Shown here one piece after another: positions 4,680 through 8,645 of a DNA stretch of 38,827 nucleotides. The stretch is taken from NCBI GenBank assembly GCA_039030355.1, contig JBCCEI010000003.1:1-38827 (forward strand), read 5' to 3'. Source of the stretch: Pseudomonadota bacterium. Its GTDB lineage: Bacteria; Pseudomonadota; Gammaproteobacteria; UBA4575. The notes under the pieces are model-generated. The model searched no databases, had not been told where the DNA came from, and was given only the letters and a program-made list of their open reading frames with translations. Within the stretch, counting starts at the first letter, position 1; each line of letters begins with the position of its first letter. Position numbers and translations under genes: made by a program.

Positions 4680-5414
4680 ATGCCCATAACGAAAAAGCCA
4701 AAATTTACTGAATTTAATCTACCGACTGGTCGAATTATCGCGAAGAAATATGAAATCATAACCAAACTTGGTGGTGGTTTTGAGGGCGAAGTGTACAAAA
4801 TACGTGAAACCAGTACCGGTATTGAACGTGCAGCAAAGTTTTTTTATCCAAATCGCAATGAAAAAGACCGTGCAGTTAAGTTCAACGCAAAAAAATTGCA
4901 TAAGCTTAGACAGTGCCCAATACTGATTCAGTATCACACTAAAGAGCACTTTGTTTTTAAACGTATACCTGTAACGGTATTAATTTCTGAGTATGTAGAG
5001 GGTCAATTATTATCTGAATTTATTAAAACCTTCCCAGGTAAACGCTTAATGCCATACCAGGCACTGCACCTTTTATATGCATTAACCAAAGGTATTGAAT
5101 GCATTCACAGCCTTAACGAATATCATGGTGATTTGCATTCAGATAACATCATTGTAAACAAGTTTGGACTGGAGTTTGATTTAAAGCTCGTTGATTTGTT
5201 CTCTGCTAAAGAATCAAAACGAGAAAGTCGACGTTTTGATATTTTAACGTTAATCCAGGTGTTTCATGAGTCATTAGGTGGGTCAAAATATTATGCAAAA
5301 CATCCAGATGCAATTAAATATATTTGTTGTGGGCTCAAGTCTAATCTTATTTTGAAAAAATTTAAAACAGCTGGGCAGTTAAGAAGACATATAGAAAGTA
5401 TGAACTGGTCATGA
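4680..5414 (+). CDS. Stand-alone Hanks-type Ser/Thr protein kinase
   Basis: LGGGFEGEVYK Gly-loop, AAK catalytic Lys, SEYVEG hinge, HGDLHSDNI catalytic loop, DLF in place of DFG. Confidence 0.82.
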   Translation: MPITKKPKFTEFNLPTGRIIAKKYEIITKLGGGFEGEVYKIRETSTGIERAAKFFYPNRNEKDRAVKFNAKKLHKLRQCPILIQYHTKEHFVFKRIPVTVLISEYVEGQLLSEFIKTFPGKRLMPYQALHLLYALTKGIECIHSLNEYHGDLHSDNIIVNKFGLEFDLKLVDLFSAKESKRESRRFDILTLIQVFHESLGGSKYYAKHPDAIKYICCGLKSNLILKKFKTAGQLRRHIESMNWS

Positions 5415-5849
5415 TGCAATTTCTAATAAATTTCTCAACTGCCCTCTTTTATTCTTAATCAGATCCTCAATCGTGTATTGATCTAAAGCTTCTAAAAAAC
5501 TTAATGAAGCTTTGGATAAAGCCTGTTTCAAAATACACATGGGTTCGATTGGGCATGAGTTTCCATCAGGATTAAAACATTCCACAATATAAAAATCGTT
5601 TTCAGTATTTTCTACTACTTCACGAACAGATATTGCATTTGTATCTAGGGCTAGAGTAAGTCCACCACCTTTTCCTTGTATTGAGTCAATGTATCCAAGC
5701 TTTGAGAGTTTGTGTACGACGGAGCGAACGTGATGTCTGGACACAGCATAGGCTTTAGTGAGTTCATCAATGGTTACACGCTCCTGAGAGTGCAGACCTA
5801 AATAGATCAATACTCTCAGGGAATAATCAGTAAATTGGGTGAGACGCAT
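5409..5849 (-). CDS. nsrR: NsrR, NO-sensing Rrf2-family repressor
   Basis: MRLTQFTDYSLRVLIYL, wHTH with GKGGGL, three-Cys Fe-S motif VECF...C...C; divergent from a globin gene. Confidence 0.85.
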   Translation of the reverse strand: MRLTQFTDYSLRVLIYLGLHSQERVTIDELTKAYAVSRHHVRSVVHKLSKLGYIDSIQGKGGGLTLALDTNAISVREVVENTENDFYIVECFNPDGNSCPIEPMCILKQALSKASLSFLEALDQYTIEDLIKNKRGQLRNLLEIAS

Positions 5850-5892
5850 TCTATAGGTTCCTCAATTGACATCTGCTTGAATATGGATGTAG

Positions 5893-5921
5893 TATAACAT
5901 CTAAATAAAATAGATGTTATA
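5893..5921. promoter_or_regulatory. Palindromic operator, probable NsrR site
   Basis: Perfect 11-7-11 inverted repeat TATAACATCTA-aataaaa-TAGATGTTATA between nsrR and the globin gene. The 5896-5918 portion fits the 11-1-11 NsrR architecture; the right half AACATCTATTT matches AANATGCATTT at 9/11. Confidence 0.75.
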
Positions 5922-5933
5922 TGGATTTACCCA

Positions 5934-6359
5934 ATGTTAAGCCAACAAACAAAAGATATCGTTAAAAAGACTGCACCTATATTACAAGAGAAGGGTGTGG
6001 AAATAACAAGCAGAATGTATGAACGTTTATTTAGTGAATATCCTGAAACCAAAGTATTATTTTCAAATACGAAAGATGGTCAGGCTAATCGTTTAGCAGC
6101 AGCTGTGCTTGCCTATGCACAAAATATTGATAATTTAGAAGCGCTGGGACCCTCAGTAGCTGCAATAGCAGAAAGACATGTTGCGAATAATGTTAAAGCG
6201 GAGCACTACCCAATTGTTGGGAAAGTATTGTTAGCCGCAATGCAAGATGTATTAGGTGAAGCTGCGAGTGAGGAATTAATAGAAGCGTGGAAAGAGGCGT
6301 ATTTTTTCTTGGCGAATATCTTTATTGATAAAGAGGAGAGCATAAGGACATGCGAATAA
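5934..6359 (+). CDS. Single-domain bacterial haemoglobin (Vgb/Cgb type)
   Basis: MLSQQTKDIVKKTAPIL, MYERLF, QANRLAAAVLAYAQNIDNL, proximal His in IAERH, HYPIVG, AWKEAY; no reductase domain. Confidence 0.93.
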   Translation: MLSQQTKDIVKKTAPILQEKGVEITSRMYERLFSEYPETKVLFSNTKDGQANRLAAAVLAYAQNIDNLEALGPSVAAIAERHVANNVKAEHYPIVGKVLLAAMQDVLGEAASEELIEAWKEAYFFLANIFIDKEESIRTCE

Positions 6360-6406
6360 AAGTAACAACAGGGATGTTGTATCAATTTAAAATTAGGTGA
6401 ATTCGA

Positions 6407-6436
6407 AATGTACGCTTTGGATCGTAAGCGGTTATT
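6407..6436. repeat. 30-bp imperfect palindrome, copy 1 of a direct repeat flanking ybaN
   Basis: AATGTACGCTT-TGGATCGT-AAGCGGTTATT; 25/30 identical to 6818-6847. Confidence 0.85.
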
Positions 6437-6791
6437 GTGGCTCAGGGCGACTAATGAGAAAAGCTAAAATTACTATAAATAAAATACTCATAAAAGCTAT
6501 AAGCCATATATTGTCAATTCGTTGGTACATGATGACCCAGCTTAATGTAAGCAATAGAAATGCTATTACCTTGCTTGAACGTGAAATTGCGCCATGTTGT
6601 TCCCAATCAATTAGTAGCTTCCCAAGATATGGATGTTCGTAAAGCCAACGATGCAAACGTTGGGATCCTTTTGCAGAAAACCATGCCGCTAACAACAAAA
6701 AAGGCACAGTTGGTAAACCGGGTAATAATATTCCTATTAGCGCAAGGATTAAAAAGAAATAAGCAAGAATTAAAGCAACTAGGCGTGTCAC
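6432..6791 (-). CDS. ybaN: YbaN/DUF454 inner-membrane protein
   Basis: IGILLPGLPTVPFLLLAAWFSAKGSQRLHRWLYEHPYLG signature. Confidence 0.9.
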   Translation of the reverse strand: MTRLVALILAYFFLILALIGILLPGLPTVPFLLLAAWFSAKGSQRLHRWLYEHPYLGKLLIDWEQHGAISRSSKVIAFLLLTLSWVIMYQRIDNIWLIAFMSILFIVILAFLISRPEPQ

Positions 6792-6817
6792 ATTAGCTAA
6801 TAATACTATTGTATTTA

Positions 6818-6847
6818 TATGTCCGCTTTGGATCGTTAGCAGTCATT
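6818..6847. repeat. 30-bp imperfect palindrome, copy 2 of a direct repeat flanking ybaN
   Basis: TATGTCCGCTT-TGGATCGT-TAGCAGTCATT; lies 411 bp from copy 1 in the same orientation. Confidence 0.85.
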
Positions 6848-6931
6848 TTACTCTTGAGGTTTAATAAGCCCAATAAAACTTAAATATGAAGCAACACCCC
6901 TGTTGCAACTCATATGCACACATCCATGTGT

Positions 6932-7675
6932 TTACCAATAACTTTCAGTAGTAATCTGCCCTGGGCTGCGACGAAGATTTTTCTTTAGCCCCTTTTCTTT
7001 GAGTGCGTTGCGAGTATCTATCAACATTTGTGGATTGCCACACATCATAACTTGAGAAGAATCTGCAGAAATTTGCATATTCACTCTTTCTTCTAGTTGA
7101 CCATTTTCAATCGCGGCAGGAATACGACCACTTAATGCAAAATCGGTTTCTTCTCTACTTACAAATGTGATCATTTGAAAACGATCACTGTATTTGTTTT
7201 GAATTTCTTGAATCATTTTTTGGTAAGTAAGCTCATTTGCAAAACGAACAGCATGCACCAGCACGATTTGTTCAAAACGCTGCCAAACTTCTTTTGAATT
7301 CAGGATAGATAAAAATGGTCCTAGAGCCGTACCTGTTGCAAGCATCCACATGTCTCGACCATCTGGTACCTCATTTAACGTAAAAAATCCATTTGCACGT
7401 TTATCAATATAAACGGCATCACCTTTTTTAAGTTCTGCAAGCTTGGGTGATAGCGGGCCTTCCGAAACGGTTATAGAGTAAAACTCTAATATGGATTCAT
7501 GTGGTGGATTTACAAATGAATAAGGGCGTCCAATTATTTGATCATCGATTTCCAATCCCAAGCGACCGTATTGACCAGCAATAAACGGATCAATTTTCGC
7601 TTCAATACGTAGAGAATAAAGCAAATCAGTCCAATGCTTATTTTCAATAACTTTCCCTTCGATCCAATTACTCAT
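6932..7675 (-). CDS. fpr: Ferredoxin(flavodoxin)-NADP+ reductase, E. coli Fpr subclass
   Basis: RPYSFVN, GPLSPKL, ATGTALGPF, VSRE, MCGNPQM, C-terminal ESYW. Confidence 0.93.
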   Translation of the reverse strand: MSNWIEGKVIENKHWTDLLYSLRIEAKIDPFIAGQYGRLGLEIDDQIIGRPYSFVNPPHESILEFYSITVSEGPLSPKLAELKKGDAVYIDKRANGFFTLNEVPDGRDMWMLATGTALGPFLSILNSKEVWQRFEQIVLVHAVRFANELTYQKMIQEIQNKYSDRFQMITFVSREETDFALSGRIPAAIENGQLEERVNMQISADSSQVMMCGNPQMLIDTRNALKEKGLKKNLRRSPGQITTESYW

Positions 7676-7836
7676 TTTGCCAATTTCCTTACGGCTTAAT
7701 TTTTTCTGTTGATGAAAACATGATCAAGCAACATAGTGCTGTGCTTGTTAAAAAGCAACTACTCACGTCTAGGTACAAGAGTCAATTTGGCATATACGCG
7801 TAAATGCCATGTAGAAGGCGTGGGTTGACAGAGTAA

Positions 7837-8484
7837 CTATTTACTCACGGGAAGGTTCGTGTCAGGCGTGTTGTTTTGTTTACCGCTAAATAGATTCACA
7901 AAGAACTGTAATACACGTTTAATGCCTCGCCATAGTTTTGGCAACAACCAAATCATTAACAATATAAATACTGCAAGTAAGGCAATGAAAATATAAGGAT
8001 GTTCAATTGCTGCCCAGATACCAGCAAATACTGCAATATCTTCCATAATTGATGCACTCCAATTACTAACGGGCTCGGGTGAGGTATTGATCATCACGCG
8101 ACTGCCAGTTTTGGTGAAATGAGTACCTGCAGCAAGACTACCGCCAACGATAGCAGCAGCAAGTTCTGCAGCCGGTGCAACGTCGCCAATAAACCCAGCA
8201 GCCAAAAGTGCACCGGCAGGAATGCGTACAAATGTATGTAGTGTATCCCAACCCGTATCAACTCCTGGAACCTTATCTGCAAAAAATTCCACACCGTACA
8301 TGAGACCCGCAGCAGCGATAACCAATGGGTCACCTATAATTTGTAAATCAGCAGGTAGTTCTACATAACCCGTGTTTGACATAATGCCAAGCGCAAGCAA
8401 CGTACCATAAAGATTCAGTCCACTTGCCCAAGCAACCCCCATGGTGAGTGCTATAGTTTGTACGAGTGTTGAATATTCTTCCAT
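7837..8484 (-). CDS. DUF4126 membrane protein
   Basis: WASGLNLY, EFFADKVPGVDTGWD, TSPEPVSNW, EDIA motifs. Confidence 0.85.
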   Translation of the reverse strand: MEEYSTLVQTIALTMGVAWASGLNLYGTLLALGIMSNTGYVELPADLQIIGDPLVIAAAGLMYGVEFFADKVPGVDTGWDTLHTFVRIPAGALLAAGFIGDVAPAAELAAAIVGGSLAAGTHFTKTGSRVMINTSPEPVSNWSASIMEDIAVFAGIWAAIEHPYIFIALLAVFILLMIWLLPKLWRGIKRVLQFFVNLFSGKQNNTPDTNLPVSK

Positions 8485-8645
8485 TAATGCCCCTTAAATA
8501 TCTACGTACTTATAAGACTGTATGTTTAATAAATAGTGCCGTAAGTAGCTAATACAATGAGTAAAAAAAAGTAAATTAAGAATATAATATTATCTTCAAT
8601 GGCTTGAATTCGGTGCTTATTGCCCCCATATATTTTAGATTGCTA

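Follow-up and report, generated by a model that had tools for sequence, protein, structure and literature searches.

The ybaN locus

The window analysed here is a whole 38,827-nucleotide stretch of DNA, contig C3 of the gammaproteobacterial draft genome G000 (2.0 Mb in 193 contigs, 39% G+C). In this window a ybaN gene (DUF454 family) lies between a gene for a single-domain globin, with which it is convergent, and fpr, encoding a ferredoxin-NADP reductase-like protein (Table 1). It is the sole long open reading frame (ORF) between two 30-mers of the plus strand, which are 411 bp apart from start to start and identical at 25 of 30 positions. Re-reading of the window confirmed this arrangement, originally reported in a preliminary description made from the sequence alone, together with its details. 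The TAA stop codon of ybaN (6432-6434) falls inside copy 1, in what is the outer arm on the gene strand, and a 26-nt leader separates the start codon from copy 2. Each copy forms an imperfect palindrome; the centre, TGGATCGT, and a T:T mismatch at stem position 5 are common to the two. When the window was searched with a 28-nt pattern allowing up to three mismatches, exactly these two sites were matched, and 100 shuffles gave no match.

The 30-mers are solo copies of one unit, designated A, of a lineage-wide intergenic repeat system that punctuates arrays of small, unrelated and co-oriented ORFs. Flanked by its two A units, ybaN constitutes a single-gene cassette, which occupies the position between the fpr terminator and the 3' end of the globin gene in G000 alone. 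Comparisons were made with 56 species genomes of uncultured marine Gammaproteobacteria from one order (one family); three of these relatives (G001, G010 and G014) have complete genomes.

A and B units form a lineage-wide family

A 13-nt core of the repeat gave 26 matches in G000 at no more than one mismatch, compared to a single match for the reversed control. With 24-nt cores and up to five mismatches, 39 A units (centre TGGGTCGT) and 28 units of a second type, B (centre TCGGCCAA), were called in this genome, the arms being common to both types. The zones within 700 nt of contig ends comprise 13.5% of the genome but contain 24 of the 67 units, so that the true number of units is higher.

Counts across genomes were based on a 17-nt A core, with the reversed pattern as a control. 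This core occurs 34 times in G000 and 12-75 times in 13 of the 14 other genomes of the genus, the remaining member, G013, having none. G019 contains 107 copies, G015 45 and G021 35. In the other genera the core was found a few times or was absent, as in genera g4, g5 and g10, and the reversed control gave no match in any of the 56 genomes. The sequence of the 28-nt units, including their asymmetric centres, is maintained between genera, although gene identity there is only ~72%.

No Rfam family matched either of two arrays at E values up to 1, and no composite of the kind described below was matched in plasmid and phage records. Viral contigs yielded three core matches lacking the palindromic arms, which we read as chance-level. 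The 13-nt core appeared in no paper, and no description of such arrays was found in a literature search covering texts other than supplementary files.

The preliminary description had called the repeats hairpin-type. Their palindromic character stands, but each window copy folded alone forms a weak hairpin (-3.8 to -8.0 kcal/mol; z from +0.29 to -2.06), not clearly beyond shuffles, and the centre TGGATCGT is a rare local variant rather than the family consensus. The core containing it (CGCTTTGGATCGT) has only three exact matches in G000. The A unit at the ybaN stop codon in G007 does not carry this variant, and its presence in both window copies suggests, as judged from the sequences, that exchange or conversion between the two copies has taken place in this lineage.

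Composite structure and position rule

A and B units are often paired, with a spacer of 37 or 47 nt. The unit is half of a larger composite of ~105 nt, which the preliminary description had missed. In the direction of the gene strand, a stop codon is followed by the B hairpin, a spacer with the motif TTGGAA-17 nt-TAAAAT, A hairpin, and a start codon ~23 nt further on, the full composite spanning ~100-110 nt. Positions relative to genes, called with a longest-ORF heuristic, obey a strict rule. A same-sense start codon is located no more than 130 nt downstream of 29 of the 39 A units (median 23 nt), and none of the A units faces a divergent start. Similarly, a same-sense stop codon is found within 130 nt upstream of 20/28 B units (median 11.5 nt).

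Alignment of 35 composites from four genomes revealed that conservation sets in at one outer arm and ceases at the other. The spacer contains GGTTGGA with little or no variation and, at a distance of 17 nt, TAAAAT immediately next to the A hairpin. The TTGGAA-17-TAAAAT motif reads as a putative -35/-10 pair of a sigma-70 promoter. A -10-like hexamer accompanies 35 of the 39 A units, compared to 19 of the 28 B units used as a control, and both elements are present at 25/39 A units. A pattern scanner detected the promoter pair at both composites of the array on contig C1 of G000. In the window, the TTGGGC-17-TAAAAT module (6873-6845), directly upstream of A copy 2, is a probable local version of the same motif; it scores 8/12, under the scanner threshold of 9/12.

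The long form of the spacer contains an additional conserved block, TAAGGGGAA (alignment A2, columns ~38-58). The short form prevails in G011 and the long form in G010.

A further repeat family, C, was observed directly after stop codons. These elements are ~47 nt long and comprise two small hairpins (GAAGCAACATCCATGTTGCAAC and TCATATTCGCACATCCTATGCTCAC). One copy is found in the window (6888-6935), and others in G000 at C30:16089, C97:6810, C116:739, C117:5662, C137:4306, C49:11966 and C85:259. A C element also follows the fpr stop codon in G004, and another the stop codon of a gene for a 203-aa protein in G003. In at least five C copies, the element continues into an A unit of which the right two-thirds are present, the junction being identical in all (…GCTCAC|GCTTTGGGTCGT…). 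Such hybrids might mark a fixed crossover point; with one junction and one flanking element, however, they may be copies of a single ancestral hybrid.

Cassette arrays at variable loci

The arrays are found at fixed chromosomal positions, and their content is wholly different between species. At the globin|fpr locus, the two genes are adjacent without ybaN in seven relatives according to their coordinates. A gene for an HPP-family membrane protein is located between them in G005 and G012, as well as in two metagenome contigs, and the gap in G006 is similarly large; in other species other genes are found beside fpr. An A unit lies 65 nt downstream of fpr in G002, in the orientation of window copy 2. 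ybaN itself has homologues in six relatives (77-86% amino acid identity), and its context differs in each of the seven genomes. These data support the proposed insertion of ybaN between the globin gene and fpr. An empty allele retaining one site, also anticipated in the preliminary description, was not encountered: none of the five empty alleles examined carries a unit.

Two further fixed loci compared across the genus display the same variability on a larger scale. In G000, four small ORFs with units on either side of each lie between genes for a DnaJ-like and a 203-aa protein (contig C1). The distance between the flanking genes is 4 bp in G008 and 34 bp in G006, while a single B unit separates them in G003, one cassette in G010 and in G002, and ~3.8 kb in G014 and in G011. 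A locus at 1.6 Mb in G010 holds ~11 cassettes within 6.3 kb; the corresponding interval is 18 bp in G006, 61 bp in G000 and 482 bp in G003. The largest array examined, in G011, extends over ~16 kb between the rimP-nusA-infB region and the nuo operon and contains ~35 ORFs, nearly every one of which is individually flanked by units, whereas the adjoining operons have none. As the preliminary description had envisaged, the copies delimit both single ORFs and series of unrelated ones, and gene gain and loss is linked to them. None of the patterns named there as speaking against its proposal (no further copies, stable synteny without the repeats, or a REP-like scatter) was observed. It should be noted that some cassette-type genes of G000 have only degenerate units nearby.

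The left end of the G011 array (rimP and a gene for a 122-aa globin-like protein; G011:C1, L128 7703-9100) is syntenic with the end of a G000 contig (C49:1-3220), where the contig breaks off after a Tdi1-like cassette and a degenerate B unit. Judging from these sequences, G000 probably carries an unassembled array at this locus.

The closest relatives are distant: the best identity of the flanks is 84-85%. A scan of metagenome contigs with Fpr identified no near-identical relative (best 82%), and the two closest carry fpr-HPP-globin. Contigs from four sequencing runs that matched positions 5000-8500 were either repeat-covering pieces or diverged relatives; they contained no joints and are silent on circles and deletions.

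Cassette content and boundaries

The 76 cassette ORFs collected from five genomes have a median length of 146.5 aa. In G000, ORFs downstream of units have a median of 125.5 aa, compared to a genome median of 224. No Pfam family matched 48 of the 76 ORFs. The others include Cass2/GyrI-like, DinB, SnoaL, NYN and DUF1428 proteins, Tdi1 and Rap1a immunity proteins, DJ-1, LysE and ankyrin proteins, a set that resembles integron cargo. None of the 76 ORFs encodes a recombinase. Only one homologous pair was found among them, and 5 of the 60 ORFs from genomes other than G000 have a homologue in G000.

Cassettes common to different genomes made it possible to locate the limits of homology, which coincide with units. 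A DJ-1/PfpI cassette is common to G010, G004 and G007, in the latter two on contigs other than those matching the G010 locus. In the G010-G004 and G007-G004 comparisons, homology reaches 2-4 nt past the B core at one end and 3 nt past the B core at the other. Between G010 and G007 it extends 56 nt further on one side. In all comparisons the sequences beyond are unrelated. On the stop side of this cassette, the neighbour of the B unit is a C element in two genomes; in the third it is a spacer with an A unit.

For ybaN, an A unit overlaps the stop codon at an equal position in G000 and G007, although the genomic contexts differ. The genes of G015 and G007 have a common 150-nt leader that starts at an A or a B unit, the G015 gene being located inside an array. 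In G002, ybaN lies between adk and hemH, without units.

Folding, covariation and strand polarity

One G010 composite folded into a single long hairpin on both strands (-39 to -41 kcal/mol, z about -6.5). Such a hairpin was obtained for 2/3 composites folded on the gene strand; other composites gave two local hairpins. Across the alignment, the model with two local hairpins is 86.8% paired, equal to the shuffle mean, and the model with one long hairpin 75.2%, which is under all 500 shuffles. A signal of cross-pairing between the left arm of A and the right arm of B was not borne out. How B is oriented relative to A is ambiguous, and covariation is absent. No compensatory change was detected under either model, and hence the conserved feature is the sequence; the variation speaks neither for nor against structure.

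The orientation of A units switches at dnaA and at the single dif site (position 624195 in G010, 786125 in G001 and 1911912 in G019). About 80% of A units are co-directional with replication (37/46 in G010, 21/27 in G001, and 59 of the 71 places listed for G019). For ~80% of A units the lagging-strand template carries the gene-sense strand, where pairing of the A hairpin is best (91.1% vs 82.5% for B). Hairpin-dependent recombination of single strands, as in IS608 and attC sites, shows such strand polarity.

Searches for a recombinase

The preliminary description had read the 11-bp arms and their spacer as a possible tyrosine recombinase site, with a recombinase acting in trans, and had named tyrosine recombinases and HUH nucleases as possible partners. 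No tyrosine recombinase was found beyond XerC, a XerD-like gene and phage-type integrases, and no HUH nuclease co-occurs with the units. The integron integrase model TIGR02249 scored above its cut-off in 3 of 26 genomes (G013, G015 and G025), and not in G000, G001, G010 or G014; within the family, 2 of 15 genomes have this integrase. The integron of G015 is preceded by a row of small minus-strand ORFs, and its cassette side has no A or B unit, while G013 possesses the integrase and lacks A units throughout its genome. The two integrases are encoded at G015:C29:7056-7997 (L041; 484 bits) and G013:C20:40615-41559 (L042; 387 bits).

Genes of the Y1 (HUH) transposase family PF01797 were absent from G000 and matched in 2/15 family genomes, G001 and G015. 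Loci of ~3.3 kb around two of them, one in each genome, contained no A or B unit at up to six mismatches. A serine recombinase was present in 4 of the 14 other genomes of the genus and, among the complete genomes, only in G010, being absent from G001 and G014. Five unit-rich genomes gave no match to IS110 DEDD, TnpB, Rpn or DDE_Tnp_1, and rve was matched in G019 only; Transposase_20 was not found in G000. The complete genomes G001, G010 and G014 lack matches to IS110, TnpB, Rpn, DDE_Tnp_1 and rve, and Y1-like genes occur only in G001.

A search with a dif motif located one canonical site (…CGCATAATATATATTATGTTAAAT) in each complete genome, unlike the A and B units, which makes XerCD improbable; a looser expression found nothing in the G000 draft. 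XerCD/pdif sites were rejected as an identity of the units on this basis. An attC identity was likewise rejected, since neither the consensus of the 35 composites nor the solo units have RYYYAAC/GTTRRRY end boxes; in the register of the long hairpin, TAAC of the A centre faces GAAA. The statement of the preliminary description that the sites resemble neither attC nor dif thus holds.

Transposases of REP-associated type (RAYT), IS110, TnpB, Rpn, DDE_Tnp_1, rve and serine recombinases were rejected as universal partners, being patchy or absent. The units have inverted ends, as do MITEs (miniature transposable elements with inverted repeats), but no parent element was found in the lineage genomes searched.

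Comparison with known systems

In T4-type phages, recombination between repeated regulatory modules named PeSL inserts, deletes and circularises small ORFs, according to two reports (Arbiol et al. 2010, PMC2839356; Comeau et al. 2014, PMC4122927). For PeSL, which lie in the hyperplastic regions of these phages, mini-circles and promoter and terminator activity have been demonstrated, whereas the units presented here are known from sequence. The two systems have in common small conserved composites with a sigma-70-like promoter and one or more stem-loops; the ORFs next to them are small and mostly orphan, and the regions concerned are hypervariable and situated between conserved genes. In either system the repeats contain the ends of gene insertions, deletions and replacements, and no dedicated recombinase appears to take part. 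In the genomes studied, composites with arrays of the PeSL type are recognisable, from nucleotide patterns only, at three hypervariable loci. They are not phage residents: the units are chromosomal and lie between housekeeping genes. They also differ from what is described for PeSL in having two hairpins (B before and A after the promoter), another sequence, and dozens of loci per genome.

Integrons are the textbook route by which bacteria stockpile and shuffle single genes, and they require IntI and attC. Chromosomal integrons and clusters of attC sites lacking an integrase (CALIN) resemble the present arrays in their co-oriented single small ORFs, lineage-specific imperfect inverted repeat of ~100 nt and hypervariable content, as well as in cargo (Cass2/GyrI, DinB, SnoaL, immunity proteins and many orphans). 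However, the units lack AAC/GTT triplets, no IntI was found in 12 of the 14 other genomes of the genus searched, and the arrays are distributed over many loci rather than attached to one attI platform. In addition, the cassettes appear to bring their own promoter, in contrast to the mostly promoterless ORFs of integrons.

Repetitive extragenic palindromic sequences (REP), with the derived bacterial interspersed mosaic elements (BIME) and REPINs, are also imperfect palindromes of ~28 nt that form extragenic mosaics, including doublets with spacers of ~40-50 nt foldable as a long hairpin, and are distributed lineage-wide. Unlike them, the units described here have a strict orientation relative to genes and a promoter-like spacer, and bound mobile single-gene cassettes; moreover, just 1 of the 14 other genus members has a Y1/RAYT-like gene, and no units flank it. 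Acinetobacter plasmids carry small gene modules between ~28-bp pdif sites with an arm-spacer-arm architecture, recombined in trans. Those sites are dif-like and alternate in orientation, whereas the present units are direct repeats with an 8-nt centre.

In Neisseria, the Correia/NEMIS and dRS3/NIME elements are intergenic repeats with inverted ends that supply promoters and terminators, and minimal mobile elements are places between conserved genes at which the whole-gene cassette varies from strain to strain. They represent another sequence family and lineage, and the cassettes are exchanged via the conserved flanking genes, not via repeats bounding the ORFs.

Origin of the cassette arrays

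By analogy with the phage systems, the arrays may be a chromosomal counterpart of PeSL promoter-terminator cassettes, shuffled by recombination within the repeats, a reading to which we give an even chance. The repeats would double as portable terminator/promoter modules and as crossover points. Recombination between two units would delete or circularise the gene between them, and recombination of the excised DNA with a unit elsewhere would insert the cassette at a new place. These steps could use the general recombination functions of the cell instead of an integron integrase or a transposase. We infer promoter and terminator activity, the crossover mechanism and the independence from a dedicated enzyme from sequence comparisons. 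The preliminary description had favoured a dedicated recombinase; since the composite carries a promoter-like module, recombination between regulatory repeats is at least as likely.

Several observations weigh against PeSL-like shuffling. The constant sequence of the units across genera and the lack of compensatory change are more readily reconciled with recognition by a sequence-specific protein than with plain homologous recombination or with a purely structural role of RNA. The B unit of the DJ-1 cassette, joined to varying neighbours, suggests that the exchange module is the single unit and not the whole composite. The empty globin|fpr alleles offer no unit for recombination, and, given the distance of the relatives, no recent event or exact crossover point is visible.

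Some of these features would be expected if a site-specific or single-strand recombinase, belonging to an unrecognised family or being a repurposed housekeeping enzyme, acted on the A and B hairpins in an integron-like manner. We regard this as a genuine possibility, though a rather improbable one. It is favoured by the preservation of the units, asymmetric 8-nt centres included, by the breaks in cassette homology at unit edges and the different neighbours joined there, and by the centre variant common to both window copies and otherwise so rare in the genome. The placement of the best-pairing strand on the lagging-strand template points the same way, although this polarity may merely follow gene orientation. 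On the other hand, no candidate enzyme emerged. Integron integrases and Y1 genes are each confined to two of the 15 family genomes, with no units in the G015 integron array or beside the two Y1 genes examined; serine recombinases are patchy, IS110, TnpB, Rpn and DDE_Tnp_1 were missing from all five unit-rich genomes searched, the cassettes encode no recombinase, and dif is unlike the units. In its strongest form, this explanation amounts to integron-independent gene capture, in which an enzyme or repurposed housekeeping function recombines ~28-nt hairpins on the lagging-strand template and builds dozens of dispersed, self-expressing single-gene cassette arrays in genomes without the transposase families searched for; we consider it doubtful. 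If true, it would be a second, independently evolved solution to the problem that integrons solve.

The units might also be ordinary REP/BIME- or MITE-like repeats, selfish or regulatory, that accumulate in tolerant intergenic space of fast turnover; they would then mark islets of accessory genes with no causal role in their movement, ybaN having arrived by an unrelated rearrangement. The BIME-like mosaics of short palindromic A, B and C elements agree with this, as do the similarity of the composite to a foldable REP doublet, the cassette-type genes of G000 with only degenerate units and the unit-free globin|fpr alleles. Nevertheless, three events (one gene and two units) would be needed at globin|fpr, cassettes common to different loci end precisely at units, and in arrays of up to ~16 kb nearly every small ORF is flanked while core operons nearby are free of units. 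Most of the genomes have no RAYT or parent insertion sequence to spread the elements, and no filled/empty pair differing by the repeat alone was found. Taken together, we judge this explanation unlikely. That the 30-mers arose by chance or by a purely local duplication, as the weakness of each hairpin alone might suggest, is refuted by the further copies in G000 and the hundreds in relatives, with no match in the 56 genomes for the reversed control; the shuffles without matches also speak against it.

The system is of interest for its integron-like single-gene cassettes, present in many arrays per genome without an integron integrase, or matches to IS110, TnpB, Rpn, DDE_Tnp_1 and rve, in the complete genomes G001, G010 and G014. 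If the repeats mediate exchange, shuffling of the PeSL type would not be peculiar to phages and could represent a general, enzyme-light form of gene mobility in streamlined genomes, explaining how orphan genes arrive pre-equipped with expression signals.

Gene neighbourhood of ybaN

Coordinates of the features of the ybaN locus are given in Table 1.

Table 1. Features at and around the ybaN cassette (window coordinates)
Feature	Position	Strand	Remarks
Rrf2/NsrR-like gene	5409-5849		upstream of globin gene
Single-domain globin gene	5934..6359	+	conserved left flank; convergent with ybaN
A unit, copy 1	6407..6436	+	stop end of ybaN; imperfect palindrome; 5 mismatches to 24-nt A core
ybaN (DUF454), cassette ORF	6432..6791	-	119 aa, GTG start; PF04304, E 6.9e-34
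ybaN leader	6792..6817	-	26 nt, from A copy 2 to ybaN start codon
A unit, copy 2	6818..6847	+	start end of ybaN; 3 mismatches to A core
Promoter-like module	6845..6873	-	TTGGGC (6873-6868), 17 nt, TAAAAT (6850-6845); directly upstream of A copy 2
C element	6888..6935	-	second repeat type with two small hairpins; abuts fpr stop
fpr (ferredoxin-NADP reductase-like)	6932..7675	-	conserved right flank; matched in 23/24 genomes of same family

One hairpin of the C element (6891-6906) coincides with a terminator-like site at the end of fpr, where GCAACAGGGGTGTTGC precedes a T-rich tail. The Rrf2/NsrR-like regulator, the single-domain globin and the convergent Fpr-like reductase (5409-7675 in the window; L016, L020, L138 and L139) make up a conserved neighbourhood, which may represent a nitrosative-stress cluster with a variable middle slot.

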